A stretch of DNA of 64,000 bases from positions 182,153 to 246,152 of the forward strand of contig PCYM01000001.1 in the NCBI GenBank assembly GCA_002774875.1, read 5' to 3'. The translations under genes and the position numbers were made by a program. Each line of letters opens with the position of its first letter. Positions within the stretch are counted from its first letter, which is position 1. This document shows, one piece after another, positions 1,481-62,032 of the stretch. The notes under the pieces are model-generated. The model made no database searches. It worked only from the letters and a program-made list of their open reading frames with translations, and was not told the origin of the DNA. This DNA comes from Candidatus Uhrbacteria bacterium CG10_big_fil_rev_8_21_14_0_10_50_16 (GTDB lineage: Bacteria; Patescibacteriota; Patescibacteriia; UBA9934; UBA11717).

Positions 1481-3142
1481 TTAAAAGGAAGATTCAATCG
1501 CAGAGTCTGCGGATTCGGAAAGTCGATATTTTCGAAACAATCGACGCTGTAAGCTACACCAAAGCGTCGTGAGTTCTGGGCTGCGCCAGATCCACGCAGC
1601 AAGGATATATACAATAAGCCCCGCAATACCCGCCACGAGTCCCTGTCCTAGGATACCAAAAAATGTGTTCGTTGGAATCACGCGTTCGTAGAGTATCTTC
1701 ATAGCTTGAATCATGAGTCCTCCAAGTAAACTCGCGACACAAAAGGTAATGAGTGACTGCAAAATTCTTGATTCATCGAGTCCGTGAAGCTTCCGTGAGA
1801 TAAAAAACCATAAGCAAATGAGCTGCAAAATACTTGCCAAGGAAAACGCCATGGCAATCCCGGCTACGCCGTAGCTGTGACTCCAGTAGAGGGCAAGGAC
1901 AATATTGATAGCAGCCGTAGCTAGCGCAATAAGGGCGGGCGTGAGCGTGTTTTTAAACGCAAAATAAACGCGAACAAGCAACGGAATGAGGGCTTGTGCA
2001 AATAAACTCAGGACAAAAAATGCTAGCGTGTGCGCTGTGAGAATTGTCGAATCCCAATCAATGACGCCTGCTCCTAAAACAACACGGACAATTTGAATGC
2101 GTAATAGTAAGAAGACAACACTGAGAGGGATAATCAAAAACAGGATATTACGAGTGGTGGTGGAAATTGTCGCTCGCATCTTTGCCATGTCTTCATTGTT
2201 TGCTTGCTCACTAAGCAGAGGAAACGCGGCGATAGCAAACGAGATTCCCACGATTCCAATCGGCACATATTGAATATTATTTGCAAAATTAAAGATAGCA
2301 ATACTCCCTACTGCTAGTAACGACGCGATGGCCGTCATAACAATGAGATTTAATTGTGATATCCCAAGGCCGACAATGCGCGGTCCCATTAAATACAAAA
2401 GCGTACGAACATCTGGATCTCTCCAATCCCAAACCATCCGGTATCGCCATCCCGAATGGATCGCCCCCACTAATTGAATAAGAAAATGAAGAAATGAACC
2501 GAGCACAACCCCCCAGGCAACGGTTGCGATACCACCGCCAACAAATCCTGTGACAATAACACCACTAATAATTCCAATGTTATAGAGCAAAGGTGCGATT
2601 GCATACAGTGTAAATCGTTTAAGGCCTTGTAGTACTCCGCCAAAGACGCTTGAAAGTCCCAATAAAATCGTCGCAAAATACATGATGCGAGAGATTCCCA
2701 CAGCCTGATCTACGGTTGCCGCATTAAATCCTGGCGCAATCATGTGCAGAATCTGCGGTGTATAGATCATTCCAATTCCGGACAAGAGGATTAAAAATGC
2801 CCCCATGATATGTAGCACGTTATTGGTGAACTCCCATGCCAGGTCGGAATTTTTAGAAAAGCGTTTTGAGAAAAACGGAATAAACCCTGCCGACAAAGCG
2901 CCGAGAACCAAAAATGTAAAAATGAGGTCTGGGATTCTAAATGCCGCGTAATACACGTCGAGCTCGACACCCGCACCAAATGTTCCTGCAAGGAGTCGAT
3001 CGCGGATGAGTCCAAGAACCCGTGAGGCGAGTGCGGTGGCGCCTAACAAAACAGCAGCGCCAACAATGGTCGGTGCTGCTGCGCCTTCTCGTTGTCTGTT
3101 TCTAGTCCGTCTCATGTTTAGAGGGTCGCAAGATGGTTGCAA
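1481..3142 (-). CDS. murJ: lipid II flippase MurJ/MviN
   Basis: 553-aa polytopic membrane protein. N-terminus LGLIRDRLLAGTFGAG..DVYYAAFRIPDL matches the MurJ consensus. Confidence 0.8.
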   Translation of the reverse strand: MQPSCDPLNMRRTRNRQREGAAAPTIVGAAVLLGATALASRVLGLIRDRLLAGTFGAGVELDVYYAAFRIPDLIFTFLVLGALSAGFIPFFSKRFSKNSDLAWEFTNNVLHIMGAFLILLSGIGMIYTPQILHMIAPGFNAATVDQAVGISRIMYFATILLGLSSVFGGVLQGLKRFTLYAIAPLLYNIGIISGVIVTGFVGGGIATVAWGVVLGSFLHFLIQLVGAIHSGWRYRMVWDWRDPDVRTLLYLMGPRIVGLGISQLNLIVMTAIASLLAVGSIAIFNFANNIQYVPIGIVGISFAIAAFPLLSEQANNEDMAKMRATISTTTRNILFLIIPLSVVFLLLRIQIVRVVLGAGVIDWDSTILTAHTLAFFVLSLFAQALIPLLVRVYFAFKNTLTPALIALATAAINIVLALYWSHSYGVAGIAMAFSLASILQLICLWFFISRKLHGLDESRILQSLITFCVASLLGGLMIQAMKILYERVIPTNTFFGILGQGLVAGIAGLIVYILAAWIWRSPELTTLWCSLQRRLFRKYRLSESADSAIESSF

Positions 3143-35562: not shown

Positions 35563-36864
35563 TTAATTTGCAAGCCATTTTCCGTACTGACGCACAAGAA
35601 GCTCTGGTGCTCTCAACGGTTCTGCCATGAGTTCTTTGACAATCTTCTCTGTACGAATACCCTGCGATCCTTTAACAAGAATCGCGTCTCCACGTTTCAT
35701 CCGCTCCTGTAAAAATCGCCCCGCGTCCACCGAATTTGCATACGTGTAGACCTGCGTCTGTGCCATTCCCTGCTCCAACGCCGCACGTGCGGCATCGCGT
35801 GCATGTTCTCCCACCGTCACAAACAAATCAATCGGCAATGTTGCGACATGTTTACCAACATCTTTGTGCGCCTGTTCCGAGTAGCGTCCCAACTCCAACA
35901 TATCTCCCACAACCGCAATACGTTGTGCACCCGCATTAATAGGCACACCACACAACACTTCCAGCGCCGCATGCACCGCCTCCGGTGACGCATTATAGGT
36001 ATCATCAATTAACAACGTATGTTTAATACCTGGCAACAACCGCAATCGACCCGGCATAGGGATGTAGGACTGGACATTTTTTGCGATCGTTGAAGGAGAC
36101 AGTCCAAGCTGCAGAGCTACGGCTGCGCCTGCCAATACAGATCGTACGTGCGCGTCTCCAATCACGTTTTTCATTGTAACGGGCACGGAGTCTCGTCCCA
36201 TTCTGAGCGTAAACATTAACTGAGACATTGTGTCACCAACAAGCGTCTCACCATTTTGACGCATATCAACGCGAATATCCTCCGCCGTAATATCCGCCAT
36301 ACCTAATCCATACGTCACCACAGACCCCTTGGCGAGATGACTCATGCCTGACACATTTGCATCGTCTGCATTTAAAATCGCGATTCCATCCGCTGCCAAT
36401 CCGCGAATTAATGCGCTTTTTTCCTCTTTTACATCCTCGATCGTTCCAAAATATTCTGCGTGCGCCACACCAACAGCTGTTACAACTGCTATATAGGGAC
36501 GCGCCATCTGACAAAGGTATTGAATGTCTCCTCGTGCGTCCGCTCCAAATTCCAGCACAAGAATTTCTGGATAATCATGCGCGCCACCCTGAGAGCATCG
36601 CCATCCGCGCCACAACACACCCACCCAACCAAAGAATGAGCGGCCAGGTGACGTCTCGTTGAGGATAGTCAACGGCACACCAATCTCATTATTATAGTTT
36701 TCTACTGTCGCGCGCACGCGTCGTGAAGAACCAATGGCAGCAACAATCGCATGGCGTGTGGACGTCTTACCGACCGACCCGGTAATTGCAATAACTTTTG
36801 GTTTATACGCACGTAACGTTTTTTTGGCAAGGCGCGCAAGAACGCGCTGGAGGAGTTGTTTCAT
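35563..36864 (-). CDS. murF: UDP-N-acetylmuramoyl-tripeptide--D-alanyl-D-alanine ligase
   Basis: ITGSVGKTST P-loop, VVGDMLELG motif, Mur ligase fold. Confidence 0.8.
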   Translation of the reverse strand: MKQLLQRVLARLAKKTLRAYKPKVIAITGSVGKTSTRHAIVAAIGSSRRVRATVENYNNEIGVPLTILNETSPGRSFFGWVGVLWRGWRCSQGGAHDYPEILVLEFGADARGDIQYLCQMARPYIAVVTAVGVAHAEYFGTIEDVKEEKSALIRGLAADGIAILNADDANVSGMSHLAKGSVVTYGLGMADITAEDIRVDMRQNGETLVGDTMSQLMFTLRMGRDSVPVTMKNVIGDAHVRSVLAGAAVALQLGLSPSTIAKNVQSYIPMPGRLRLLPGIKHTLLIDDTYNASPEAVHAALEVLCGVPINAGAQRIAVVGDMLELGRYSEQAHKDVGKHVATLPIDLFVTVGEHARDAARAALEQGMAQTQVYTYANSVDAGRFLQERMKRGDAILVKGSQGIRTEKIVKELMAEPLRAPELLVRQYGKWLAN

Positions 36865-36889
36865 ACAGGCAGGAATGCGGCTCTATAGG

Positions 36890-38707
36890 TTATCGTTCGG
36901 GGGAAATTTGCTTATAGTGTAGCAGAAAATCCGCGATCTCCCCAAACAAGGGAGCGGCGGTTCCGGCAGCCCATTCTGACGCACGTGGGTGATCTATTCG
37001 AATCAACATCACAAACCGTGGATCACGCGCTGGACCGTAGCCCACAAACGTTGCAATCGTATTGCCCGTTTGATATCCCGTACCACTATCGTTGGCCACC
37101 TGCGCCGTTCCTGTCTTTCCGGCAATGTAATATCCATCGACCTTTGCAAGCCCTGCATGTCCATTCTCAACTGTGGATACGAGCATCGCGGTAGTAAGTT
37201 GGGCGGTTTTTGGGGAGACAACTTGGCGAAGTTGCACAGGATCCGTCTTCTCAACGGTACCATCTTGATGTCGAACTTCCTTTACAAGGTAGGGTTGCAT
37301 CATCGCTCCCCCGTTGGCAAGTGCCGTATAAGCGCGTGCCATTTGCAGCGGTGTCACCGTCAATCCCTGACCGTAGGAACTCGTCGCAGAATAAATCTCA
37401 TGCCCTTTATCCACAGCACTAATCTCCCCTTGTACCTCACTGTTAAGCGAGATCCCAATAGTCTCGCCAAATCCAAAATCATGCACATAGCGCGCCAGAA
37501 CATCACCTCCCATTTTACGCATCACAAAAATCATCCCCGTATTGAGCGACTTCTCCAGCACTTCCGTCATGGTTTGGATACCGTTGGCCTTATGGTCTGA
37601 GTTGCGGATAGTATAGCGATCAATCTTCTCTTCTCCCGTGTCGTTATACGTCATGCTCGGTGTAACAGCGCCCGCATCCAATCCCGCCGCCATCACGAGC
37701 GGTTTAAACACGGAACCTGGTTCATATGCAGAAAAGATTGCCTGATTATTATAGACAGAAATTGATTCTACCTCGTTGTATACGTTGGGGTTATAGGTAG
37801 GCACACCGCACATAGCCCAAACAGCACCCGTTTTTGAATCCAAAATAATCAAAGATCCACTATCGGCCTCAAAGCGATCTACGTTCTCTTGCAATTTTGT
37901 ACAGGCCACATGCTGAATGGTGCGATCAAGTGTCAATACAAGATCCGCACCATTTTGTGCATCGTGAAGATTACGTGCGCCGATCCCAATCCAATTGCCT
38001 TTTGCATCCAGCTCTGAGAATAAAAATCCCGGCTGCCCTGCGAGCGTGTCATTAAAGTAACCCTCCAATCCATATTTTCCACTTACGGTTCCATTGGGGT
38101 CCTCACTCACAAAGCCCGTCACATGTGCCGTCGTTTCCTCCTCAGGATAAAAGCGAAATTGCTCACGCAATAAATGAATCCCCGTGAGATTTGCGCGCGT
38201 AATCTCGTCTCCCAATTCCTCGCTTACTCGACGTTTAATCGGCTCGTAGGGGTCGTCGGCTTTTTGTAATTGCGCAAGGACGTGATCGTATTCCGAAGGT
38301 AACGTAATGGTTTCTCCTTGATCATTCACAGATTCCTCTCCCTCACGAGACAATCCTAAAATGTCAGACAATACATCTGCGGTACGCACAGGGTCGTCGA
38401 CTTTACGAGGTTCTGCCCACACAAGATTTAAAAATTGATTCGTGGCAATCGCCACCTCTGTGCCATCTCGATCTTCTACAAGAATGGACCCGCGCTGTGG
38501 ATACAGGTCTTTATAGAGCTCCCGTTGCCCGCTCGCCAAGGCCTCATACACCCCGTGCTTGAGGATCTGTAAATACCCCAAACGGACAATAAGCATGGCG
38601 GCAACCAGAAAAAACGCGGCCTGCAAAAGACGCACACGAGAAGGCGTGGAGACGGATGCAGAGCGATTCCCGTAATACGCCCGTGTTTTTGGGGATTTTT
38701 GTGTCAT
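36890..38707 (-). CDS. penicillin-binding protein 2 / FtsI-type transpeptidase
   Basis: N-terminal TM, SVFKP (SxxK), SxN and KTGTA motifs. Confidence 0.85.
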   Translation of the reverse strand: MTQKSPKTRAYYGNRSASVSTPSRVRLLQAAFFLVAAMLIVRLGYLQILKHGVYEALASGQRELYKDLYPQRGSILVEDRDGTEVAIATNQFLNLVWAEPRKVDDPVRTADVLSDILGLSREGEESVNDQGETITLPSEYDHVLAQLQKADDPYEPIKRRVSEELGDEITRANLTGIHLLREQFRFYPEEETTAHVTGFVSEDPNGTVSGKYGLEGYFNDTLAGQPGFLFSELDAKGNWIGIGARNLHDAQNGADLVLTLDRTIQHVACTKLQENVDRFEADSGSLIILDSKTGAVWAMCGVPTYNPNVYNEVESISVYNNQAIFSAYEPGSVFKPLVMAAGLDAGAVTPSMTYNDTGEEKIDRYTIRNSDHKANGIQTMTEVLEKSLNTGMIFVMRKMGGDVLARYVHDFGFGETIGISLNSEVQGEISAVDKGHEIYSATSSYGQGLTVTPLQMARAYTALANGGAMMQPYLVKEVRHQDGTVEKTDPVQLRQVVSPKTAQLTTAMLVSTVENGHAGLAKVDGYYIAGKTGTAQVANDSGTGYQTGNTIATFVGYGPARDPRFVMLIRIDHPRASEWAAGTAAPLFGEIADFLLHYKQISPER

Positions 38708-38864
38708 CTAGCACACAGTATACCACCTTGACAAAATCGCCATTTTCTGATAGGTTAGACCGTCACATTCCGTCTGAGGTTTGTGCAAAATTCACCAGAA
38801 ACATGCCTGTTTGAGGCTGTGCAACACATTTGATCTGCGCCTACGTGCGCGAGAGGAGGATGCG

Positions 38865-42011: not shown

Positions 42012-45000
42012 TTAACTACATCCACTTGTAGACCCACAATTGAGACACTTATAACAAGCCGCATTGCGCACCATAATGGATCCACAGGTATCACACGCCG
42101 GCGCGTCCGACTGATTGTCAAACGTCTGCGTAAGTGACGCTGCCTTGTATCCGTAGGTTTCCCCTTCTGCCTTTGCGTCGAACAAGCTCACTTGATCCAA
42201 CGGGTCTTTTACCTCAGGTTCCTCTGCATGTGGTCTGCTCAAATGATCATCCATTCCCTGCTTATCCACCTGAATTCCCAATTCGATCTGCTTATTAACA
42301 TCCAAGAACTTGTACGCCATCCATCGGAAGATGTAATCCACTACGGACTTTGCAATGCGGATATTGGCGTTATTGGTAAATCCGGACGGTTCAAAGCGCA
42401 TGTGTGCAAATCGATTTACAAGCGCCTCCAACGGTACGCCATACTGCAGGGCGATAGAGACGGCAGACGCGAGCGCGTTCATGAGCCCAGAAATCACTGA
42501 TCCTTCCTTGCTCATCATGATAAACACTTCTCCCGGTGTTCCATCGTCGTACAACCCAACCGTCAAATATCCTTTGTGACCGGCAATCGAGAACTTATGC
42601 GTAACGGATCGGCGCTCGTCTGGCAACCGTCGTCGGCGTGGGGTAGAAACCTCACGTGTAATCACCACGGGCTGTGGGGCTTCTTGCACAGGCGCGGACG
42701 TCTCTTCCGCGGAATCTCCTTTTGCTCCGTCGTCCTTCTGTTTGAGTGACGTGGTGAGCGGCTGTTGACGCTTAGATCCATCACGGTAAATTGCAATGGC
42801 CTTAAGTCCCATCTTCCACCCTTCGCGATACACTTCCTCCACATCCTCTACCGTTGCCGTTTCTGGCATATTGACGGTCTTGGAGATAGCACCCGACAAA
42901 AACGGTTGCACCGCCGCCATCATGCGCACGTGTCCCATGTAATGAATGGTGCGTGTTCCCTGTGCGGCTTTAAAGGCACAATCAAACACAGGCAAATGCT
43001 CGTCTTTAAATCCAGGTGCCCCCTCGATCGTATCCTTCTCTTTAATGTAGTCAATAATCGACGCGCATTGTTCTGGGTTGTAGTTAAGGAACTCGAGCGC
43101 CTCCGGCACCGTTCCATTGACCAACTTCTCCATGCCGCCGTCTACCATCCATTTGTACTTAACGAGAGCGATATCTGGCTCCACACCTGTTGTGGCACAA
43201 TCCATAAGGAATGAGATGGTTCCCGTCGGTGCCAATACGCTAATTTGCGCATTGCGGAATCCATGTTTTGTTCCATACTCCAACGCCCTGTCCCAACTCG
43301 ATCGCGCAGCTGCCAACACTTCTGCCGGCACACCTGCCTCTGGAATGCGATACGCCGCTTCACGATGCATGCGAATCACGCCCAACATAGACTCGCGATT
43401 CCGCTCGTACCCAGCAAACGGACCAAGCTTCTCGGCAATTTTGGCGCTTTGATAGTACGTCTGGCCCGACATGATAGACGTAAGTGCCGCCGACAAGTTA
43501 CGACCTTCGTCCGAGTCATACGGTAATCCGCGGCTCATCAACAACGCGCCAAGGTTGGCATAACCAATGCCCAGAGGTCGGTAATCGAAACTGTTTTGTT
43601 CAATAGAGGGAGTTGGATAATCCGAGTTTCCAACAGCAATCTCCATAGCCGTAATCATCACTTCCAACGCATGGTTGTATTCCTCAACGTTAAAACTCTT
43701 GTCCTCGCGTCGGAACAACATGAGGTTAAGACTCGACAAATTACACGCCGTGTCGTCCAAAAACATGTACTCCGAACAAGGATTGGATCCGTTAATTTGA
43801 TCTGTCACTTTACACGTGTGCCATGCGTTAATGGTGTCATGATATTGCACACCCGGATCTCCGCACCACCACGCGCTCTCTGACATTTTACGCATCAACT
43901 CGCGCGCCTTGTACGTTTGTGCCACATTCCCCGTTGTGCGCTCGATCGTAGAAAAGTCGCCATCGGTCTCCACAGCACGCATAAACTGATCCGTTACGCG
44001 CACCGAGTTGTTGGCGTTTTGAAAGAAAATGGAACTGTATGCATCTCCCGTAAAGGACCCATCATAACCCGCATCAATCAGCGCCCATGCCTTCTTCTCC
44101 TCTTTTACTTTACACTCGATAAACTCCTCTACATCTGGATGATCGATGTTTAAAATCACCATCTTCGCTGCCCGTCGCGTTTTTCCGCCAGACCGCACGA
44201 TCCCGGCGAACGAATCCCAGCCCTTCATAAAACTCACAACGCCTGAGCTCTTGCCATTGGACTTTGCCAAGTACTCACACGACCCACGAAGATTCGACAA
44301 GTTGGAACCCGTACCCGATCCATACTTAAACAGCATGGTCTCCGTGGTAGCCAGGTTCATAATGGATCGCATGTCGTCCTGCACCGAGTTAATAAAACAG
44401 GCCGAACATTGTGGATGTTGGCTCACACCGACATTAAACCAAACGGGGCTATTAAACGCCGCCTTCTGGTTAATGAGAATATGCGCCAACTCCGCCTCAA
44501 ATATATCTGCGTCCTCCGCCGTCTGAAAATAGCCGTCGTTGCGGCCCCAATTTGCCATTGTCGTTGCTACGCGTCCAATCAACTGACGAGCACTTGTTTC
44601 ACGCTCCGGTTCACCAATCTTTCCTTTAAAATACTTTGAGACAACAATATTGGTAGCTGTTTGCGACCAGGTTGCTGGGACTTCTACGTCTTTCTGCTCA
44701 AAAATAACATTCCCTTTCTCATCTTTGATCGCTGCAACACGCGTCTCCCACGTGATTTGATCAAATGGGTGTACACCGGGAGTTGTAAAATGCCGTGCTA
44801 CCGTAATGCCGTTTCCATATTTTGGTTCGGAACGGTGTGTGGGAATGAGGTTTTGTTTTTGACCCATGTACGCGCGCGCCACAAACGCAAGGTTGTTGTC
44901 GATACACGTAAGCGAGACCATCTCGCGAATGTCACCCGTTGTTGGCACTAATACGCCGTCATACACTTTATTCAAACGCGTAATCACATGACCCGTCATG

Positions 45001-45200
45001 CGCTCGGCATAACGCAGCGCCTTATCTTGCTTCAACCCAGCGGTACGCACCGCTGCATCGATTGATTTGTAAAGCTTCTCTTGTGAGAACGTCTCCTCGC
45101 GCCCGTCCATTTTTTTTACCAGTTTGACGGAGGTGAGAAACGTCCAAACAGCGTCGGCAGAGCCTGCGACTGTTTGCTGCAGTTTATTGGTTGAAGACAT
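42012..45200 (-). CDS. nrdJ: class II (adenosylcobalamin-dependent) ribonucleotide reductase with N-terminal ATP cone and C-terminal zinc ribbon
   Basis: ATP-cone LVKKMDGREETFSQEKLYKSIDAAVR, RNR catalytic core (about 1060 aa, single chain), C-terminal CDTCGS..CYKCLNCGS. Confidence 0.85.
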   Translation of the reverse strand: MSSTNKLQQTVAGSADAVWTFLTSVKLVKKMDGREETFSQEKLYKSIDAAVRTAGLKQDKALRYAERMTGHVITRLNKVYDGVLVPTTGDIREMVSLTCIDNNLAFVARAYMGQKQNLIPTHRSEPKYGNGITVARHFTTPGVHPFDQITWETRVAAIKDEKGNVIFEQKDVEVPATWSQTATNIVVSKYFKGKIGEPERETSARQLIGRVATTMANWGRNDGYFQTAEDADIFEAELAHILINQKAAFNSPVWFNVGVSQHPQCSACFINSVQDDMRSIMNLATTETMLFKYGSGTGSNLSNLRGSCEYLAKSNGKSSGVVSFMKGWDSFAGIVRSGGKTRRAAKMVILNIDHPDVEEFIECKVKEEKKAWALIDAGYDGSFTGDAYSSIFFQNANNSVRVTDQFMRAVETDGDFSTIERTTGNVAQTYKARELMRKMSESAWWCGDPGVQYHDTINAWHTCKVTDQINGSNPCSEYMFLDDTACNLSSLNLMLFRREDKSFNVEEYNHALEVMITAMEIAVGNSDYPTPSIEQNSFDYRPLGIGYANLGALLMSRGLPYDSDEGRNLSAALTSIMSGQTYYQSAKIAEKLGPFAGYERNRESMLGVIRMHREAAYRIPEAGVPAEVLAAARSSWDRALEYGTKHGFRNAQISVLAPTGTISFLMDCATTGVEPDIALVKYKWMVDGGMEKLVNGTVPEALEFLNYNPEQCASIIDYIKEKDTIEGAPGFKDEHLPVFDCAFKAAQGTRTIHYMGHVRMMAAVQPFLSGAISKTVNMPETATVEDVEEVYREGWKMGLKAIAIYRDGSKRQQPLTTSLKQKDDGAKGDSAEETSAPVQEAPQPVVITREVSTPRRRRLPDERRSVTHKFSIAGHKGYLTVGLYDDGTPGEVFIMMSKEGSVISGLMNALASAVSIALQYGVPLEALVNRFAHMRFEPSGFTNNANIRIAKSVVDYIFRWMAYKFLDVNKQIELGIQVDKQGMDDHLSRPHAEEPEVKDPLDQVSLFDAKAEGETYGYKAASLTQTFDNQSDAPACDTCGSIMVRNAACYKCLNCGSTSGCS

Positions 45201-48526: not shown

Positions 48527-49870
48527 TCAACCACGTTGATGATTCTTTTTCCACTCGTTGAGAATGTCGGTGGTTCCATGCCCCAAGAACCGAAGGAAGT
48601 CGTGCTCAATGGCATTCTTTTCTGCAATCATACCGTAGACCATGGCACTCGTGCGAGGTGTTCGCTTCATGGTCGTGCGATCAACCTCGATAAGTCCAAA
48701 CGTAGGCGCAAATCCTTTTGCCCATTCAAAGTTATCCAACAAAGACCAGTGAAAGTACCCGCGCACGTCGGCACCTTCCTGTACGGCGTAGTACAGCTGC
48801 ATCAAAAATCCCACAATCACCCGGATACGCTTGTCGTCGTTGGTCGTCGCTAACCCATTCTCCGTAATATAGATCGGTTTTTTGTAACTCGCCATGTCCA
48901 TACAGACATCAAATATTCCATGGGGAAATAATTCCCAGCCAATGTCAGACGATTCAAACTGCGCACTTTGTGAATTCTCCACCGGCCCTTTACGCTTTAA
49001 AAAATCCCACGCACTTTTGAGTCTAAAGTGAAAATAATAGTTGAGCCCCAAAAAGTCGTGCGTGCGCATGCCACTGACATAGTAGAACACGTGATTCATG
49101 CCGCGATCGATCGCCGCTGCTGCCACATGATCCACAAAACTATGCTTGCGGTAAATGGTCATGGAGGAGACATTGTTGGCAATCCCGACCTGTGTTGTTC
49201 TATTGCGTGCACGCGCCCACGCATGAATCAGTTTGTACGCTGCTCTGTGACACCGTGTCTGCCACCACACCACCTTGGCCGCCTTGTAATAGCTCCGTCG
49301 TTGCGGAGGCCACTCCAAAAAAACATACCCCTGCAGCACATAGACCATCGGCTCGTTGATTGTGCACCATAGGTCGACAAACTCCCCGAGCTCCTCACAC
49401 ACCTTTTCTACAAATCGTGTGTAGTATTTAACCACTTTATGTGTCTCCCAACCTCCCTCGTCCATCAACCATTGCGGGTTGGTAAAGTGATGCAACGTCA
49501 ACATAATTTGCAAACCCTGGTTTTTGGCCTCTGAAAGCAGATCACGATAGTGCGCAAACGCCTCCCCGTCCCATGTTCCCTCGCTCGGCTCCAAACGTGA
49601 CCATTCCACACTCATCCGATAGGCGTTGTTGTGCAGATGATCTTTTGCAAGCGCAAAATCTTCCTTGTAGTGATTCCAATGATCCACCGCACTCCCAGAC
49701 GTTGTACCGTCGGCAATGTGTCCGCCTTCTTGCTCCCACTTCCACCAGTCGGCGTTTTTATTTCCGCCTTCAATTTGATACGAGCTCGTTCCCGTGCCCC
49801 ACAAAAACCCCTCCGGGAATTGACGGGGTTCGTAATGGAGATCCTTTGTGCGCTCACTCATGAGTCCCAT
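48527..49870 (-). CDS. GH1 beta-glucosidase
   Basis: FLWGTGTSSYQIEGG, TLHHF.P, ITENG catalytic nucleophile. Confidence 0.85.
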   Translation of the reverse strand: MGLMSERTKDLHYEPRQFPEGFLWGTGTSSYQIEGGNKNADWWKWEQEGGHIADGTTSGSAVDHWNHYKEDFALAKDHLHNNAYRMSVEWSRLEPSEGTWDGEAFAHYRDLLSEAKNQGLQIMLTLHHFTNPQWLMDEGGWETHKVVKYYTRFVEKVCEELGEFVDLWCTINEPMVYVLQGYVFLEWPPQRRSYYKAAKVVWWQTRCHRAAYKLIHAWARARNRTTQVGIANNVSSMTIYRKHSFVDHVAAAAIDRGMNHVFYYVSGMRTHDFLGLNYYFHFRLKSAWDFLKRKGPVENSQSAQFESSDIGWELFPHGIFDVCMDMASYKKPIYITENGLATTNDDKRIRVIVGFLMQLYYAVQEGADVRGYFHWSLLDNFEWAKGFAPTFGLIEVDRTTMKRTPRTSAMVYGMIAEKNAIEHDFLRFLGHGTTDILNEWKKNHQRG

Positions 49871-49871
49871 A

Positions 49872-50885
49872 CTACCAGCGAATTGTACGTGCAGCCTCCC
49901 ACAACTCAGGGTGCCCCACTTGTCTTAATGCCAACCACCATTCCACACCCCAGACCATCACCTCGTCCATTCCAACCTGATTTGCATAGTCGACATTTTT
50001 CCGTAAATCGTCCGCAGAAAAAATATCAACTTGTTCTTGAGGCGAGTACGTTTGAATGGACCGCTCAAACCACGGCTCCATCTGAAGTTCTGATATCACC
50101 ACATGCGCCGGGCGCACAAGCCATGCCTTGGCTCGGTACATCCACGGAGGAATTGGGTATGTCGTGTAACCAATCCCCTTTGTAAACGTCGTACGATACA
50201 CGGACACGCCAATTGTATCAGACAGCTTGGCCACGCGATTCCACAGTTCCAACTCACCGCTTGCCGTAAGCTGCACCGGATGGCTTGGATCAATACGACG
50301 CACCAACGCAACCTCGTCTGATAACGTTGCAAGCGTTTCCCCGTCCCCACACTCCCCGAAGGCTCTAAAAAATGGTTCGTTTTCCACTTGCCAACGCAAG
50401 AGCGATGAACTGTTTTTGTAGCGTGTCACGGTCTGCTCAACAAATGTCAATTGTGCATGTATTTGATCCTCGGTCGACAACGCATTAATCCATGCGGGCA
50501 CAAAGCACTCGGGCCATCGCGGAACACGGCGACCGACCACCAACACAACATCTGCCCCATGTTCTTCGGCAAGTTGCATAAGCGCGTCCATCTCACTCCA
50601 ATCATAGCTGTTCTGTTGTGCCTCAACGCGATCCCAATACACAGGGATACGAAGCAGAGAAATACCAAGATCCTCCATAGATTCCCGCAGTCCATCCACC
50701 GGGTCCACGCCAATATATTCCGCGTACTGTGCCGACCACGTGGCGCCGTAGCGAATCTTATCTGTCTCAACACGTCGAGGAAGCACAAACGGTCCGCCAG
50801 CAAGAACAAGGATCAACGCAACGCCGATCCCGAGAATGATTCTTGTGAACCGTTTTTTTGTGTTTGTGTGCATTCCTCCAGTCAA
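49872..50885 (-). CDS. membrane-anchored GH5-like (cellulase superfamily) glycoside hydrolase
   Basis: N-terminal TM; TIM-barrel glycosidase NEP motif (WQVENEPF). Confidence 0.5.
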   Translation of the reverse strand: MTGGMHTNTKKRFTRIILGIGVALILVLAGGPFVLPRRVETDKIRYGATWSAQYAEYIGVDPVDGLRESMEDLGISLLRIPVYWDRVEAQQNSYDWSEMDALMQLAEEHGADVVLVVGRRVPRWPECFVPAWINALSTEDQIHAQLTFVEQTVTRYKNSSSLLRWQVENEPFFRAFGECGDGETLATLSDEVALVRRIDPSHPVQLTASGELELWNRVAKLSDTIGVSVYRTTFTKGIGYTTYPIPPWMYRAKAWLVRPAHVVISELQMEPWFERSIQTYSPQEQVDIFSADDLRKNVDYANQVGMDEVMVWGVEWWLALRQVGHPELWEAARTIRW

Positions 50886-54356: not shown

Positions 54357-54782
54357 TTAACGTGCGCGATAGGGGTAGGCTTTTCTAAAATCATCCTCGG
54401 TTCCCTCTACCCCATCCTTCCCCGCGGAAACCAATTGAATCATGGTTGCATCCGTCTCGGGTGTCACAAGGTGAATGGACTGCGTAAACGTATCCGTGGT
54501 TGGATACGCGTCCCCCGTGAGCGTCTGCCACTCCACAAAACGCTGCGTCAGGCTCACCGAAGCATCCGTATCGTACTCGTGTTCAAAGACCCACGTCATA
54601 AACCCATCGGCCACTTGATCAAACACCGTCTGCGTCAGCGACCCATCGATTCCCACAAACGCGCTGTCCTGCGTGGTATCCACCGTTTTATTACTCACCA
54701 AACCACCCGACACGCACCCCGCGCCCAGCACGAGTGTAAGCATACCAAGCATCCCTATCTGCAACAGAGGTTTATTCACCAT
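54357..54782 (-). CDS. hypothetical lipoprotein
   Basis: Signal peptide with lipobox LVLGAGC; 141 aa. Confidence 0.45.
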   Translation of the reverse strand: MVNKPLLQIGMLGMLTLVLGAGCVSGGLVSNKTVDTTQDSAFVGIDGSLTQTVFDQVADGFMTWVFEHEYDTDASVSLTQRFVEWQTLTGDAYPTTDTFTQSIHLVTPETDATMIQLVSAGKDGVEGTEDDFRKAYPYRAR

Positions 54783-56343
54783 AAAGTAATTGAGCGGCGG
54801 CAGGCGCCATTTGATAATTAGAATGAGCTACACCTGGGACCACCTGAAACGTCCAGTTAAACAACAACCCATTATCCATTGCAAATTGTCTCGCAGCGTT
54901 ATAAAAGTTTGTCGCACGTTCAACGCGTTGAGATCCCTGTAACTTGGCGGCAGCTGATTTTGATAAGTTTTCCGCATTTGGGTCCGTGTCCTCCGATCCA
55001 ACAATGACTTGCATTGGGACGGAAAACGATTGTGCCAAACGATCGTGATCAAAAAACGCTTCTCCAAATCCCGCAGGATAGGTCTGACCATAGTCTGGCC
55101 ACAGATACCAACCCGAGCTCGCTGCAATCACGCGTCTGACCTTTGCGTAAGGCTTGGCAAAAATAGCACGATGAACGAGTTGTCCACCACCAGAAAACCC
55201 AAATAAATCATAGAGTTGCTCCGTACTGTTCGATGTGGCAATAACCTGATCGAAAATCGCATCAAACATCGTTGCATACCAATAATTCTCTGGGAGAGCC
55301 ATACGGCTGCTCGTATAAATGTTTCCGTAAGGGTATTGATACCCCGAGGTATACACATCGGCTGGGAAATGAGGAAGCAATAACACAAAACCGTATTGTT
55401 CAGCATAGGGGACCCAACTAGACCTATACCCCTCAACAGCTCGACTTGCCCCATGAATAACAAACAAGATCGGAGCATCCTGTGGTAATCCCGCAGGGCG
55501 ATACGTGTAAACGGTCATTGGAATTGTAGGATTTATTGAAGGGTCCTGAAAAACAAATGAGCCGTATCCTTCTGGAATCAAAGAAGAAATGAGCGATATC
55601 TCTCCTTGTTCAAGCGGGATCTGCTCGCCGGCAACGGGCGCATGATCCACAACAGGCGCAAATAATTGTGCTGCATCTACAACCTCATCAACATGTCCCG
55701 TCATTACCTGTCCAATAGCCCGTGTAGGTGTAATAGTATCCGTCCAAATTCTCAAATCCGAACGCAAAGCATTTGCCGTGATCGCCGCTGCCGTCAACAA
55801 ATGTTTCTCCCCATTCCACACCATCCACGGATCACCACCGTTTGTGTAGACCAATCCGTTATACCCTTGGGATACATTCTCCGTAGTAATTGCCTCACCT
55901 ACGTGGTAATTCAAAAAAAACGTGTCAGGGACATCTCGTACGCGCGATTGCCACTGGTACGTGCCCGAAAGTTGTTGCGCCACCTGCTCACTCTCAATCC
56001 ATCGAATCTCGCCACCCTGCCCAACCGCATATACTTTTGGCAATGATTGAATTTTAATCCAGTACGTTCCGGGTCGATAAACAATATTCGCTCTTAATGG
56101 CAATGCAGCCATCTGAGATTGAGAGATAATGGTAACAGCAGAAAAATCTTGATACCAAGAGAAAAATACTTGTTCGTCTGGGAACGCGTGCCGGTTTCCC
56201 TGTGTATCAACGTAGTACACAGCGGATGCCTGCTCCGTTTTAACAAGCGATTGTGGAGCAATAGCCAAACTTGCATGCACAAATAGAGAGGAAGCTAGCA
56301 TTAATCCAAAACTCAATAAGCCCAGTGAGACGCAACGCTGCAT
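54772..56343 (-). CDS. secreted alpha/beta-hydrolase (esterase/PHB-depolymerase-like) with N-terminal extra domain
   Basis: Signal peptide; GxSxG nucleophile elbow LFGFSGGGQL in C-terminal half. Confidence 0.6.
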   Translation of the reverse strand: MQRCVSLGLLSFGLMLASSLFVHASLAIAPQSLVKTEQASAVYYVDTQGNRHAFPDEQVFFSWYQDFSAVTIISQSQMAALPLRANIVYRPGTYWIKIQSLPKVYAVGQGGEIRWIESEQVAQQLSGTYQWQSRVRDVPDTFFLNYHVGEAITTENVSQGYNGLVYTNGGDPWMVWNGEKHLLTAAAITANALRSDLRIWTDTITPTRAIGQVMTGHVDEVVDAAQLFAPVVDHAPVAGEQIPLEQGEISLISSLIPEGYGSFVFQDPSINPTIPMTVYTYRPAGLPQDAPILFVIHGASRAVEGYRSSWVPYAEQYGFVLLLPHFPADVYTSGYQYPYGNIYTSSRMALPENYWYATMFDAIFDQVIATSNSTEQLYDLFGFSGGGQLVHRAIFAKPYAKVRRVIAASSGWYLWPDYGQTYPAGFGEAFFDHDRLAQSFSVPMQVIVGSEDTDPNAENLSKSAAAKLQGSQRVERATNFYNAARQFAMDNGLLFNWTFQVVPGVAHSNYQMAPAAAQLLYGE

Positions 56344-56409
56344 AGTTTATCGTTTGCCCACATGATATCATGGCATAGACAGATCTTCCAATCCTGCTAA
56401 TCTCCTGTT

Positions 56410-57774
56410 ATGCAAACATTTTCCAACAAAACATTCACCTTTGTCTCCTACGCATTTGAAACAACAACCGGTGTCATTACCCTTTTGTATGATTTGAACG
56501 GCGATACCTACAAGGAGCGCATCACTGTGCCAATGAGCGATATCAATATGGACTGCGTCCCCCAGGAAGATCTTGATCGCGCACTTTTCTCTCTGCACCT
56601 CATGGTTGGAATCGGCTATTGGAAAACGTACTGCCCAAAAAACATCGTCATTCAAAGCGGCCAACTCACCCGCACACAGGCGCATTTTTGGAACACCGTC
56701 TACACCAACGGGCTTGGTGAATTGTATTACAAAAACGACATCGACTTTCGCGATCAAGTACATTTTCCCTACAATAAAGACTTGGAGGCACTCGTTCCAC
56801 AGGGCAGCAACGAGCGTAAGGAGCATGTATTGGTCCCCTTTGGTGGCGGAAAGGACTCCGTGGTGACGGCCGAGCTCATGCGCAAGCTCGGATTTACTGT
56901 GACCCTTTTCTCCATTCAAGACGCGGCACCAATCCAAGACGCCGCCCGTGTTTTTGACGCCCCACACGTGATTGTCGACAGAGCACTGGATCCAAACATC
57001 GTTGATCCCACCTCTGCCGTGCGCACAGACCCACAGGCGTTTAACGGTCACGTACCCATTAGTGCTATCTGGTCCATGATCACCGTTGTGACCGCAATCC
57101 TCCATGGTGCTACAGATATCGTGTACTCCTGGGAGCGGTCTGCATCGGAGGGAAACTTGGAGTATCTCGGCATGGAGATCAACCATCAGTGGAGCAAGTC
57201 GTTGGCATTTGAACGCTCACTCCAAGCCTACGTAGATACATTCATTACCAAACGCACACGCATCTATAGCCTTGTACGACCATTGAGTGAATTTCATATC
57301 GTGCAGCTCTTTACGCGCTATCCGCAGTATTTTGATTCTTTCTCGAGCTGTAATCGCAACTACACGCAGGAGGCCATTGCCAATCACGCGCCGACGTTTT
57401 GGTGCAATCAGTGCCCAAAATGTGCGTTTATTTTCTCGCAACTCAATGCGTTTTTGCCGCACACACAGGTGGTAAACATCTTCGGCGAAGACATGTTTGC
57501 CAATGACAACTTACTTGATCTCTACCGCGAGCTCCTAGGGATTCAGGGAAACAAGCCATTTGAGTGTGTCGGTGAGGCTAAAGAGGTGGTTGCCGCTATG
57601 GAACTTGCCTACCGTCGCGCCGATGCAAACGACGCACCTGTCATGCAACTCTATGCGGGTGAAGTACGAGACACCGTTGAGGATCATGATGCCGTAATCC
57701 AAGACTTGCTCACGCCAAGCACGGATCATGCGGTTCCATCTGACATCGTTGCACGCGTGGATTATGCGGCTTAA
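56410..57774 (+). CDS. PP-loop ATP pyrophosphatase-family protein; candidate UDP-MurNAc-L-Ala-L-Glu epimerase MurL
   Basis: SGGxDS-type PP-loop VPFGGGKDSVV, C-terminal Cys cluster WCNQCPKC. Overlaps and is co-oriented with a MurD-like ligase gene. Confidence 0.5.
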   Translation: MQTFSNKTFTFVSYAFETTTGVITLLYDLNGDTYKERITVPMSDINMDCVPQEDLDRALFSLHLMVGIGYWKTYCPKNIVIQSGQLTRTQAHFWNTVYTNGLGELYYKNDIDFRDQVHFPYNKDLEALVPQGSNERKEHVLVPFGGGKDSVVTAELMRKLGFTVTLFSIQDAAPIQDAARVFDAPHVIVDRALDPNIVDPTSAVRTDPQAFNGHVPISAIWSMITVVTAILHGATDIVYSWERSASEGNLEYLGMEINHQWSKSLAFERSLQAYVDTFITKRTRIYSLVRPLSEFHIVQLFTRYPQYFDSFSSCNRNYTQEAIANHAPTFWCNQCPKCAFIFSQLNAFLPHTQVVNIFGEDMFANDNLLDLYRELLGIQGNKPFECVGEAKEVVAAMELAYRRADANDAPVMQLYAGEVRDTVEDHDAVIQDLLTPSTDHAVPSDIVARVDYAA

Positions 57775-59095
57775 AGACCTTGCCAACAAACGTGTTGCTT
57801 TGATTGGATTTGAGGCGACCAACCGTTCCCTATTTTATGCACTTCGCTCCGTCTGCCCCAACCTCTGGGTAGAGATTCGCGATCTTCGCACCACCGTCAC
57901 GCTGCCAGAGGACCCGTTTGTTACGCACACACTCGGCGAAACATACCTAGACCATCTACAAACGTTCGACGTCATTATTCGATCACCTGGCGTGCGCTAT
58001 TGGCCACAGTTGCAAGCGGTGCAATCGCATGTCACCACAAGTCTCAATCTCTTCTTTGACGAGGTACGATCAACGACCACGGCAACGATGATTGGTGTCA
58101 CCGGGACCAAGGGAAAATCAACCACTGCCACCCTGTTGGCACATGTTTTGCGTGAGGCGGGTAAAGCTGTGACGCTCATTGGCAACATGGATATTCAGGA
58201 ATGGGATCACCTACACGAGATTAACGACGACACAATTGTCGTGTACGAGATGTCCAGCTACATGTTGGAAGATTTTAACAACTGGCCAGACATTGCCCTC
58301 CTGCTCCCCTTATACCCGGATCATATGGACTGGCATGGATCATTTGCCGCATACACCGAGGCTAAATCTCGCATTACGGCTCGTCAAACAAGCGAAAACA
58401 TGTTGATCTTTCCTGCTAAAAACGCGGAGGCTCTCTCCATTGCAAAACAGACAGACGCCACAACCATCCCCGTGCAGATTGTAAGCGGTCTTCATTGGCA
58501 AAACGGTTTCTTTTTTGATGGAACACAGCAACTTTTTTCTACAAACGCGCTCCCGCTCCCCGGAGAGCATTGGTTAGACGATGCACTGCTCGTTCTCGCT
58601 GTCGTTAAACAGTTGGACATTCCCTTTGACCGTGCCCAGCGTGCGTTCACCAGCTTCAAAGGTTTGCCACATCGATTAGAGGTTGTGGCAACAATCAACC
58701 AAGTAACCTACGTGGACGATGCTATTTCCACCACACCAGAATCAACAATCGCGGCTGTAAAGGCGTTCGATACGGTCGGATCCATTGTCTTGGGCGGTAT
58801 GGATCGCGGATATGATTATGTGGCACTTGCGCAGCTACTCACAGAACGTCACGTGCCAAACGTCCTCCTCTTCCCCGGCGCCCGTGAGAAATTTCAACAC
58901 GCTCTTACACGCGCTCAGTTTGCTGGTAGCGTGATTCTTGTGGAATCCATGCAGGAGGTCGTTTCTACCATGGCGCAGTGCACACCCGCAGGGTCTGTGG
59001 CACTCTTGTCTACCGCCGCACCAAGTTACGATCAGTTTAAGAATTACAAAGATCAGGGGCAACAGTTTGTGGATTGTGTTCGAAAGTTGTCTTAG
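57764..59095 (+). CDS. MurD-family UDP-MurNAc-L-Ala--glutamate ligase (candidate MurD2)
   Basis: GVTGTKGKSTTATLLAHVL P-loop, Mur ligase central and C-terminal domains; start at MRLKDLANKRVALIGFE. Confidence 0.65.
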   Translation: MRLKDLANKRVALIGFEATNRSLFYALRSVCPNLWVEIRDLRTTVTLPEDPFVTHTLGETYLDHLQTFDVIIRSPGVRYWPQLQAVQSHVTTSLNLFFDEVRSTTTATMIGVTGTKGKSTTATLLAHVLREAGKAVTLIGNMDIQEWDHLHEINDDTIVVYEMSSYMLEDFNNWPDIALLLPLYPDHMDWHGSFAAYTEAKSRITARQTSENMLIFPAKNAEALSIAKQTDATTIPVQIVSGLHWQNGFFFDGTQQLFSTNALPLPGEHWLDDALLVLAVVKQLDIPFDRAQRAFTSFKGLPHRLEVVATINQVTYVDDAISTTPESTIAAVKAFDTVGSIVLGGMDRGYDYVALAQLLTERHVPNVLLFPGAREKFQHALTRAQFAGSVILVESMQEVVSTMAQCTPAGSVALLSTAAPSYDQFKNYKDQGQQFVDCVRKLS

Positions 59096-59115
59096 ATGCT
59101 ATCACCCTCGTTTGA

Positions 59116-59175
59116 TCGTCATTGCGCGTTTCACGAAGCAATCTATTTATTCTTTCTCTCTCCTTTTTGTTTCGC
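59116..59175 (-). repeat. about 60-nt conserved element, copy 2 (inverted relative to 9615-9674)
   Basis: tcgtcattgcgcgtttcacgaagcaatctatttattctttctctctcctttttgtttcgc. Confidence 0.7.
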
Positions 59176-59495
59176 CAAAAAGGAGGCAAAAAGCATCGTG
59201 TCTGTACGGCGTACTCGTGGGGACACGCTGAGGGAACTCGCGATTTTGCTCACGATCAGATCAGCTCTGATCAATCCAGCCCTTCGCCCCCGAGGATATG
59301 TGCGTTTTGAAAGACGAAGCCTATGCGGAGAATTATCAAAACACGCATGTCCGAAGATGAGCGAGTTCGGCGAAGGATTTAAGCGTGATGAATAATGCGG
59401 TTAAGGTCCCTAGGCGGGCTCGGGATGACGGATGGTTTGCTCACGATCTAATCTGTTTCAGACTTCGTCGGCGAAGGATTTAAGAAATAAAAAAC

Positions 59496-59535
59496 ACCCG
59501 CGCGAGGCGGATGTTTTTTTAGACACGGTGCTTGT
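59496..59535. terminator. bidirectional terminator
   Basis: AAATAAAAAACACCCGCgcgagGCGGATGTTTTTTT. Confidence 0.55.
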
Positions 59536-59716
59536 TGCTGCGAAGACTCTTTGCTGCCGTCTTTTTTGCGACACGCTTCAACTTTGGCAATTTTACGCCC
59601 GTTGAGGCACTTTTTCCTTTGCGAGACATAGATGTATGTGAGTAGTGATCGTTCCACCCCGTAGATCTACGAGACAGAATCTGCTAATACGCCAGAGTAT
59701 AGGCCAAGAGACGGGT

Positions 59717-60475: not shown

Positions 60476-62032
60476 TTAATTTTTAGCGCGATCAGACAAT
60501 AACGCCGACAAATGTTGCTGAATACGATCGATCGCAAATTCTGATCCGTCTTCTAACTCCAGACTCCAAATCATGGACGTTGCGATCTCAATGGTTTGTT
60601 CTTCATTGAACGTCTCAAACCAAGAAATCGTGCTTTCAAGAATCGCGATCGTTTCCATTATTGTTTGTCGCTCCGTTGCCTCTTCGATTTGCTGCCAAAT
60701 CTGTTGATCTATTAATGGTTGCAGGGCATCTCGCGCACGATCCTTGTCGCCATTAACAAGCGCGTTATACGCATATGTTTCCTGCCGTTGAATGTAGGCA
60801 AGCAATGTGGGCTGTACATCGGTCACGGTGAACGACCGATCATAGGCTCGCAATCGCGCATAAAGCGTGGCAACTTGTTCTGCCGCCGCGTCTTCATTGT
60901 AATGAATATCCTGGGCATGTGGCGTAGTGGCTGGTGCTGTTCTGTGTGTAATCCGTTTTGTGTCTTCTCGTGCCTTGCTTGTCTGAGCCCACGCGATTAA
61001 TCCGCGCGCCACGTTATAGGGCATATCTGTATCAATTAGGTGATAGAGCGCAAACTGTGCCGTTTTGGGTAAGGCGTCCACCATGTCGATCCGATGCACG
61101 AGCAAATCCTCCAAAAATAATGACTGATTGTAGCTGCGTTGCACATCCCCAAGAGCGTAACTCTTTCTATGACGCAAATATTGCAGGGTGGTGGTTGGAT
61201 CATAGGAAAGCGCACGTAATACCCCTTGTGCCTGAGAGAATCCCACCAATACGCGATAGTCCACTGGTTGACCCGTGATCTTCTCCACGCGCGACACAAA
61301 CTCATCGACGCCCAAATATTCACACACGTTGGAGATGTATTGTTCCTTTGCCCAAGCGAGCGACACGACGTCTGGCTCTTCCTCTGGAACCAAGGTGGAT
61401 TCTTGCGGCAACAACGTCGGCGCCTCACTCTCGGAGACTTCTTGGTTTGTAAACCAAGCCGCTTCTTCTGCCTGCCGCTCTTCTTCCACACGTTTGAGAT
61501 CCACATCGACGGCGTCCAATAATTCCGTTTGCGGCGTCCAGTGTTCTTGTCGTGGGATATAGCTATACGTTCCGCGTGGGACATTCACAAACTCCACGGT
61601 GTCTTTAGCGGTGTCAATCGTGATTGAATGAATTGCGTCGCAGTGAACCTCCTTTGCCCCCTTGCGAGAATCCACCCCCACCACTAACACGGTCACTTTT
61701 TCGGGCGTCTCGATATCTGTGTCAACACCCAATAAACCCGCGATTTGCGAGGAAAGGCTCCAAGTAGACCCCTCATCGCACGACTGTGAAGAGCAGACAG
61801 GGACAACAAACACCACAACAAAGAGCGTTGTGGCAGCCATGAGAATCGCAATCCATTTTAACGGTTTAGCTGCTTTCATGTGTGGAATTAGCCCCATCAT
61901 AGCATTGCCGCCGTCAAACCCGCAAAAGACGGTCTCTTCTTCGAAACTCAAACATGTCTCTTCCATAGTTGACAACACTGGCATTTTTTGATATGAATGA
62001 TAGGTACGTAGCCACAATGGTTGTGGTTGCAA
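60476..62032 (-). CDS. LytR-CpsA-Psr (LCP) family cell-envelope phosphotransferase
   Basis: TM anchor then LVVGVDSR..AIHSITID..VNVPRGTY LCP core. Real start probably MMGLIPHMKAAK (about 61906), leaving room for cassette H's promoter. Confidence 0.65.
   Translation of the reverse strand: MQPQPLWLRTYHSYQKMPVLSTMEETCLSFEEETVFCGFDGGNAMMGLIPHMKAAKPLKWIAILMAATTLFVVVFVVPVCSSQSCDEGSTWSLSSQIAGLLGVDTDIETPEKVTVLVVGVDSRKGAKEVHCDAIHSITIDTAKDTVEFVNVPRGTYSYIPRQEHWTPQTELLDAVDVDLKRVEEERQAEEAAWFTNQEVSESEAPTLLPQESTLVPEEEPDVVSLAWAKEQYISNVCEYLGVDEFVSRVEKITGQPVDYRVLVGFSQAQGVLRALSYDPTTTLQYLRHRKSYALGDVQRSYNQSLFLEDLLVHRIDMVDALPKTAQFALYHLIDTDMPYNVARGLIAWAQTSKAREDTKRITHRTAPATTPHAQDIHYNEDAAAEQVATLYARLRAYDRSFTVTDVQPTLLAYIQRQETYAYNALVNGDKDRARDALQPLIDQQIWQQIEEATERQTIMETIAILESTISWFETFNEEQTIEIATSMIWSLELEDGSEFAIDRIQQHLSALLSDRAKN

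Follow-up and report, generated by a model that had tools for sequence, protein, structure and literature searches.

A murL-murD2-type gene pair in Candidatus Uhrbacteria as a probable source of peptidoglycan D-glutamate

How does an ultra-small bacterium of the candidate phyla radiation (CPR, Patescibacteria) obtain the D-glutamate (D-Glu) of its cell wall? The question is raised by two overlapping genes, one for a PP-loop protein and one for a Mur ligase, in a stretch of 64,000 nucleotides (nt) from a Candidatus Uhrbacteria genome (contig PCYM01000001.1 of assembly GCA_002774875.1, positions 182,153 to 246,152), which we call the window throughout. The standard route makes free D-Glu with glutamate racemase (MurI) or a D-amino-acid aminotransferase and adds it with MurD, whereas the MurL route makes no free D-Glu and inverts the residue after ligation, at the cost of an extra ATP and in one direction only (PMC8788868). 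Epimerase activity of MurL has been shown only for the enzymes of Xanthomonas oryzae, Micromonospora and Salinispora (PMC8788868). An earlier note on this DNA had suggested that the two genes are a MurL-MurD2 pair. Our analysis indicates that they very probably form a murL-murD2 operon with which this organism makes its peptidoglycan D-Glu without free D-glutamate. Most likely, then, an ultra-small CPR bacterium gets its wall D-Glu by epimerisation after ligation, for one extra ATP, and not from glutamate racemase. The pathway and the protein family are already known (Feng et al. 2017, via PMC8788868 and PMC5808125) and are recognised by Pfam, NCBIfam and JGI annotation. Only four points go beyond the literature searched, and they may have been published elsewhere: the wide CPR distribution, the recurrent fusions, a ligase subtype with Asp at position 182, and the PP-loop fold.

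The murL gene and its overlapping partner

The upstream gene (56410..57774, forward strand, ATG start) encodes a protein of 454 amino acids (aa) that matches the NCBIfam MurL model NF041275 over its full length (E 1.5e-113, 379.7 bits; residues 5-451 aligned to positions 6-444 of a 447-position model). Because this score lies below the 700-bit cutoff of what is a Xanthomonadales equivalog model (MurL_Xanthmoales), we assign the protein to the wider MurL family and not to the narrow Xanthomonadales equivalog. Precomputed Pfam matches to MurL_N (PF26299) and MurL_epimerase_C (PF26298) exist for exactly this protein (E <= 1e-5). Across 78 homologues, Xanthomonas vasicola, X. hortorum and Stenotrophomonas maltophilia among them, 55 positions are at least 95% conserved, and the window protein keeps 54 of them, the sole exception being L105 in place of Phe. 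The conserved motifs GGGKDS, NGHxP, ExSA, NHQxSK, SCN, WCxxCxKC and KPFECVG are all kept. The full-length match bears out the earlier interpretation of the PP-loop protein as MurL.

The downstream gene (57764..59095, forward strand) encodes a MurD-clade Mur ligase of 443 aa and overlaps murL by 11 nt (57764..57774, forward strand). The junction reads ...GTG GAT T[ATG CGG CT]T AA, with the TAA stop codon of murL at 57772-57774. This internal ATG at 57764 fits the N-termini of the homologues in our alignment and is also the start used in the JGI gene call; some gene callers choose an in-frame upstream ATG at 57728, which gives a longer open reading frame (ORF; 57728..59095) and an overlap of 47 nt. 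The overlap named in the earlier note is confirmed by both the sequence and the homologue-supported start, and would couple translation of murL and the ligase gene. Since the gene upstream of murL (54772..56343, reverse strand) is divergent, murL and the ligase gene form a two-gene unit, and the 66-bp intergenic region common to both directions (56344..56409) presumably holds the operon promoter. A promoter scan around the operon gave matches no more numerous than in shuffled sequence. On the 3' side of the ligase gene, about 620 nt (59096-59716) hold no convincing ORF, and an Rfam scan of this gap returned only sub-threshold chance matches; a hairpin at 59489-59519, with a 13-bp stem and A and T runs on its flanks, could terminate transcription in both directions. 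The same locus is also present in the ENA, JGI and Logan assemblies.

The gene order is that of the X. oryzae pair MurL (XOO_1319) and MurD2 (XOO_1320), in which murL precedes murD2 with overlapping frames (PMC8788868, PMC5808125), and our Xanthomonas and Stenotrophomonas loci have the same order and overlap, in line with the resemblance first noticed. To place the pair in a wider context, we searched species-representative genome contigs with a profile built from the MurL alignment and obtained at least 590 matching stretches; all counts of synteny, ligases and overlaps given here refer to the best 80 of these at least 590 murL loci, none longer than about 13 kb. Of these 80 loci, 77 have a detected MurD-like gene, and in 73 of the 77 this gene follows murL immediately in the same orientation, whether overlapping it, fused to it or separated from it by no more than 105 nt. 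The pairing of murL with a ligase is not due to chance. Overlaps range from 4 to 26 nt in homologous loci, being typically 20 nt in Xanthomonadales and 4 to 20 nt in CPR loci. Extra ORFs stand between murL and the ligase gene in L006, L028 and L071; L017 and L055 stop at a contig edge; and L060, which has about 0.7 kb downstream of murL with no ligase match, is the sole locus without a contig-edge explanation. The small ORF inserted in L028 (7392-7718) has a GIY-YIG-like motif, seen by eye, and three small opposite-strand ORFs separate murL from murD2 in L006 (7445-8478).

Ligase specificity and D-glutamate supply

The ligase matches Mur_ligase_M and Mur_ligase_C and scores 288 bits against TIGR01087, the canonical murD model (cutoff 212). 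It is the same three-domain Mur ligase as E. coli MurD, with which it has in common the catalytic residues K115, N138, E157, H183 and the carbamylated Lys198 (E. coli numbering), as well as T321 and Asp182. The determinants in which X. oryzae MurD2 differs from E. coli MurD are E197 (D182 in E. coli), R358 (K348), P433 (A414) and F435 (L416); E197D alters the stereospecificity of MurD2, and E197D/R358K turns it into a D-Glu ligase (PMC8788868). K319T makes E. coli MurD accept L-Glu, and Streptococcus mutans MurD, with Arg at the R358 position, slightly accepts it (PMC8788868).

We aligned 72 ligases adjoining murL with E. coli MurD and four further solved D-Glu MurDs (PDB alignments), and verified the structural numbering of E. 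coli MurD. All five solved D-Glu MurDs have Lys at position 319, where the 72 MurL-linked ligases without exception have Ile, Leu or Phe; the window ligase, having lost the Lys, carries Ile321 there (58724..58726; this and the following codons are on the forward strand). Its Arg348 (58805..58807) is the equivalent of E. coli K348 and of MurD2 R358, a determinant named in PMC8788868, and Pro420-Ser421-Tyr422 (59021..59029) aligns with E. coli A414-S415-L416 and X. oryzae P433...F435. Position 414 is Ala in 5/5 solved D-Glu MurDs, and nearly all of the 72 MurL-linked ligases combine P414 and R348 with an aromatic residue at 416. Arg at 348 is not diagnostic alone, since S. agalactiae MurD also has it. 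At the aligned positions that distinguish MurL-coupled ligases from the five solved D-Glu MurDs, the window ligase is of the MurL-coupled kind, with Ile for K319, Pro for A414 and Arg for K348. A neighbour-joining tree likewise sets the five canonical MurDs apart from all MurL-linked ligases, the window's included (bootstrap 74/100), and while canonical murD lies between mraY and ftsW, the window ligase gene overlaps murL. The ligase proposed as the MurD2 partner of MurL has the expected signature at Ile321, Arg348 and Pro420/Tyr422, but not at the equivalent of Glu197, where Asp186 (58319..58321; D182 in E. coli MurD) departs from the Xanthomonas determinant.

Against the X. oryzae pair as a whole, sequence identity is about 35% for the window MurL and about 28-30% for the ligase. 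Homology of the MurL proteins extends from end to end, and the ligase shares the equivalents of R358, P433 and the aromatic residue 435 together with the loss of K319; the pair differs in the Asp at E197, in the length of the overlap (11 versus 20 nt) and in its host, a metagenome-assembled genome (MAG) from a group outside the published distribution list (PMC8788868).

Natural fusions of the two proteins bear on the meaning of Asp186. Among the best 80 loci, uninterrupted fusion ORFs occur in MurL-ligase order in L022 (5983-8364, 793 aa), L030 (5890-8400, 836 aa) and L018 (5986-8085, ending at the contig edge), and in ligase-MurL order in L069 (4696-7272, 858 aa). A profile search of 1.84 billion protein representatives, with lengths inspected among the best 150 family members, yielded 15 proteins of 799-914 aa that are MurL-ligase fusions (among them P0121, P0125, P0143, P0187, P0207, P0221, P0236 and P0266). 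Thirteen have the MurL-ligase order and two, P0207 and P0236, the reverse; Mur ligase domains were found in 9/9 of the long representatives scanned, in either order. Position 182 of the 15 fused ligase domains is Asp in eight, Glu in six and Ala in one, and none has Lys at 319. P0143 and P0125 share the exact D-I-R-P-Y signature of the window ligase, and Asp at the E197 position recurs in six other MurL-linked ligases (L001, L006, L009, L012, L015 and L069). As a ligase fused to MurL must feed MurL, Asp at 182 is no argument against a MurD2-type function. On these alignments, Glu197 is a determinant in the Xanthomonas enzyme that MurL-coupled ligases do not universally share. Asp186 still lowers confidence in a strict L-Glu specificity of the window ligase.

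The window was also surveyed for other sources of D-Glu, by Pfam and NCBIfam scans of 49 ORFs and by tblastn with E. coli MurI and MurD. No MurI, D-amino-acid aminotransferase (Aminotran_4) or second MurD was found in the 64 kb; the 49 ORFs contained no Asp_Glu_race domain, tblastn found nothing further either in the window or in the 80 related loci, where no MurI, D-amino-acid aminotransferase or canonical MurD was found. This agrees with the earlier statement that neither murI nor a canonical murD is visible in the window, and the gene content is consistent with MurL-MurD2 as the source of D-Glu. A second Mur ligase is present (433 aa; 35563..36864, reverse strand); it was considered as a canonical MurD and rejected, being MurF-like (TIGR01143, 275.7 bits, just under cutoff). 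Its gene lies directly downstream of one for an FtsI-like transpeptidase, a penicillin-binding protein (PBP), identified by domain scan (36890..38707, reverse strand). Together they make up a fragment of a dcw-type cluster (35563-38707, reverse strand), in which the next gene downstream encodes a protein-kinase-domain protein and not MraY. Domain scans further identified MurJ (1481..3142) and an LCP-family protein (60476..62032). With MurJ, the FtsI-like PBP, the MurF-like ligase and the LCP-family protein encoded in the window, the organism makes peptidoglycan.

Several observations weigh against a murL-murD2 operon. The MurL score falls short of the equivalog cutoff, and that of the ligase exceeds the curated TIGR01087 threshold for canonical murD; judged by raw similarity, Xanthomonas MurD2 is no nearer a relative of the ligase than E. 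coli MurD is (144 versus 140 bits), and the ligase shares with canonical MurD the Asp that X. oryzae MurD2 replaces by Glu197. The absence of murI, a D-amino-acid aminotransferase gene (dat) and a second murD holds for 64 kb of a larger genome, and the CPR members of the pathway are known from sequence alone.

Some of these observations would suit a ligase of relaxed or mixed stereospecificity. Owing to Asp186 it would accept either enantiomer of Glu, or chiefly D-Glu from a racemase encoded elsewhere in the genome, and MurL would serve to correct or salvage L-Glu ligated by mistake and not as the only route to D-Glu. We regard this as improbable. The shift in specificity caused by E197D, the slight acceptance of L-Glu by S. 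mutans MurD, the score above the TIGR01087 cutoff and a murI absence established for the window only all fit such an enzyme, but eight of the 15 natural fusions have the same Asp, two of them with the entire signature of the window ligase. In addition, K319, invariant in D-Glu MurDs, is Ile here and A414 is Pro, and murI was found neither in the window nor in the 80 related loci.

A still less probable alternative is that the CPR pair acts on another substrate, either with a different amino acid at position 2 of the stem peptide or on a UDP-sugar peptide outside peptidoglycan. CPR MurL proteins are 34-36% identical to characterised MurL, their ligases are at about 28-30% to characterised MurD2, and Asp186 is accompanied by other differences in the amino-acid pocket of enzymes that, in CPR, are sequence predictions. 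Against this, the window MurL retains 54 of the 55 family-wide residues, and the ligase has the MurD contact residues for UDP-N-acetylmuramoyl (UDP-MurNAc)-L-Ala or ATP and for the Glu site, namely T321, S415 and the aromatic residue at F422 (Tyr428, conservative for Phe); ordinary peptidoglycan genes are moreover present in the window.

Fold and chemistry of MurL

MurL is described in reviews as acting from L to D only and as an enzyme that 'lacks known conserved domains' (PMC8788868, PMC5808125), and a PDB sequence search for a solved MurL found none, with matches to the PP-loop motif only. To characterize its fold, we generated an AlphaFold2 model of the window MurL from a 17-sequence alignment (pLDDT 90.4, pTM 0.90) and compared it with the PDB by Foldseek. 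The neighbours are PP-loop ATPases: MJ0690 (3k32), QatC, TtuA, Cap9, YcfA, argininosuccinate synthase, NMN synthetase and MnmA. Foldseek assigns a probability of 1.00 to the matches with 3k32, QatC (9y02/9y01) and Cap9 (9nto) and of 0.97-0.99 to those with TtuA; QatC, from the QatABCD defence system, aligns with a TM-score of about 0.4 over about 430 columns. The PP-loop motif FGGGKDS, residues 144-150 (56839..56859, forward strand), is the predicted ATP pyrophosphatase/adenylation site. It aligns with the SGGKDS motif of TtuA, and G145-S150 are invariant in both homologue sets (n=17 and n=78). GGGKDS, a PP-loop of the SGGxDS type, and the modelled Rossmann-like fold together place MurL in the PP-loop ATP pyrophosphatase (adenine nucleotide alpha-hydrolase) superfamily.

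The second feature that had drawn attention to this protein, a cysteine cluster, was likewise located. WCNQCPKC comprises residues 331-338 (57400-57423) and, with a further Cys314, forms the pattern C314...C332-x2-C335-x2-C338 (SCN...WCNQCPKC; 57346..57423, forward strand), a putative QueC-like metal site. The four cysteines are invariant in both homologue sets and may bind a metal. An hhalign comparison of the window MurL with E. coli QueC lines up the C...CxxCxxC cysteines in a topologically sensible manner but is not significant (E 0.042, probability 1.3%), so that kinship with QueC rests on fold and cysteine pattern only. QueC, QatC, Cap9 of CBASS, TtuA and MJ0690 share the predicted fold and a GGxxDS PP-loop with the window MurL, whose C...CxxCxxC pattern resembles the QueC zinc site. 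QueC chemistry begins by adenylating the substrate carboxylate, and MurL chemistry would likewise start by adenylation. These enzymes differ from MurL in that they have no significant sequence similarity to it beyond the PP-loop and lack two further domains of MurL, one of about 130 residues at the N-terminus and a helical one at the C-terminus. MurL moreover acts on a UDP-MurNAc dipeptide, which it epimerises instead of carrying out an amidation or thiolation.

This resemblance is the basis for a further alternative, that a canonical D-Glu MurD lies incidentally beside an unrelated nucleoside- or tRNA-modifying PP-loop enzyme of the QueC/TtuA/TilS type. The PP-loop and cysteine cluster recall QueC and TtuA, the structural neighbours include QatC, TtuA and MJ0690, and one JGI record names a homologue 7-cyano-7-deazaguanine synthase. 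At the level of sequence, models of QueC/TtuA/TilS-type enzymes match the window MurL only at E >= 6e-4 and only at the PP-loop motif; the next best model, TtuA, covers the 35 residues 136-170 around it at E 6e-4, against a full-length MurL match at 1.5e-113. The earlier note had set such an alignment as the outcome that would overturn its reading, and the protein aligns with MurL instead. Since an incidental neighbour would also have to explain an adjacency kept in 73 of 77 loci over several phyla, and the occurrence of fusions, we consider this alternative extremely improbable.

NCBI lists the window MurL as a hypothetical protein (COV06_01280), and some sources name the homologues P0053, P0091, P0098, P0101, P0110 and P0029 'endonuclease domain-containing protein' or '7-cyano-7-deazaguanine synthase'. 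The endonuclease and QueC names are probably mistaken annotations spreading through CPR genomes. Some CPR homologues are correctly named MurL in JGI annotation, and the labels of the family, 'hypothetical protein' included, can be corrected.

With a murL-murD2 operon, synthesis would proceed in two steps. The ligase would first attach L-Glu, to be inverted later by the ATP-using epimerase. By homology to X. oryzae XOO_1319, MurL would then adenylate the terminal L-Glu at its alpha-carboxylate (ATP to AMP and pyrophosphate), which would acidify the alpha-proton and make inversion possible. MurL requires ATP and Mg2+ and forms AMP (PMC5808125), and the reviews propose a route of alpha-carboxylate adenylation, inversion and hydrolysis (PMC8788868, PMC5808125). 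The modelled PP-loop adenylating fold fits both the published AMP-forming reaction and the proposed carboxylate adenylation, and offers a structural rationale for a mechanism that the reviews call unclear. In the motif KPFECVG (residues 382-388; 57553..57573, forward strand), which is invariant in both homologue sets, Cys386 is a candidate for the acid/base catalyst of epimerisation.

Distribution of the family and other genes of the window

Among the best 80 loci, at least 32 bear CPR names, comprising Peribacteria, Gracilibacteria, Parcubacteria, Woesebacteria, Taylorbacteria, Levyibacteriota, Microgenomates, Roizmanbacteria, Saccharibacteria and Uhrbacteria. The remainder are mostly from Xanthomonadales and Alphaproteobacteria, the groups in which the pathway was described (PMC8788868), with single Myxococcota and Solirubrobacteraceae MAGs. 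Clustered at 50% identity, the MurL family numbers 3,841 clusters at E <= 1e-3, 2,770 at E <= 1e-10 and 1,663 at E <= 1e-30. According to the reviews, the pathway belongs to comparatively few genera, and they advocate it as a target for narrow-spectrum drugs (PMC8788868, PMC5808125); no link between MurL/MurD2 or glutamate racemase and CPR/Patescibacteria was found in the literature searched, though one may be published elsewhere. At least 590 loci, about 1,660 clusters, many CPR lineages and recurrent fusions point to a distribution far broader than the reviews state. We put forward tentatively, with slightly less than even confidence, that MurL-MurD2 is a major and possibly the main route to peptidoglycan D-Glu in CPR/Patescibacteria, often as a single fusion, rather than a peculiarity of some proteobacterial and actinobacterial genera, and that the Asp-182 subtype, to which the window ligase belongs, marks E197 as not general. 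Were it so, the narrow-spectrum framing would have to be revised, and with it what has been inferred about how the pathway arose in evolution.

Four MAGs have taxon labels that seem at odds with their MurL. L001, L008 and L036 ('uncultured Gammaproteobacteria bacterium') and L012 ('Weeksellaceae bacterium') encode MurL proteins closest or near-closest to Uhrbacteria/CPR sequences, 35-58% identical to that of the window, at a GC content of 0.41-0.57; L036 is no closer than Xanthomonadales. Their labels look doubtful, possibly from mislabelling or misbinning.

Elsewhere in the window, an ATP-grasp ligase of 441 aa (10774-12099, forward strand), whose gene adjoins one for a dihydrouridine synthase, has weak similarity to D-Ala-D-Ala ligase and L-amino-acid ligase, below every Ddl model cutoff. 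An ORF of 745 aa (38781-41018, forward strand) has no Pfam or NCBIfam match and is overlapped by a 600-aa ORF on the opposite strand; its region is the most GC-rich part of the window (0.58-0.59 versus about 0.49 elsewhere). The reverse strand also encodes an 851-aa protein with weak TrwB/TraG-type type IV secretion coupling-protein domains (15684-18239), the B12-dependent ribonucleotide reductase NrdJ (42012-45200, 1062 aa) and, at 48527-50885, a GH1 beta-glucosidase adjoining a cellulase-like (GH5) gene.

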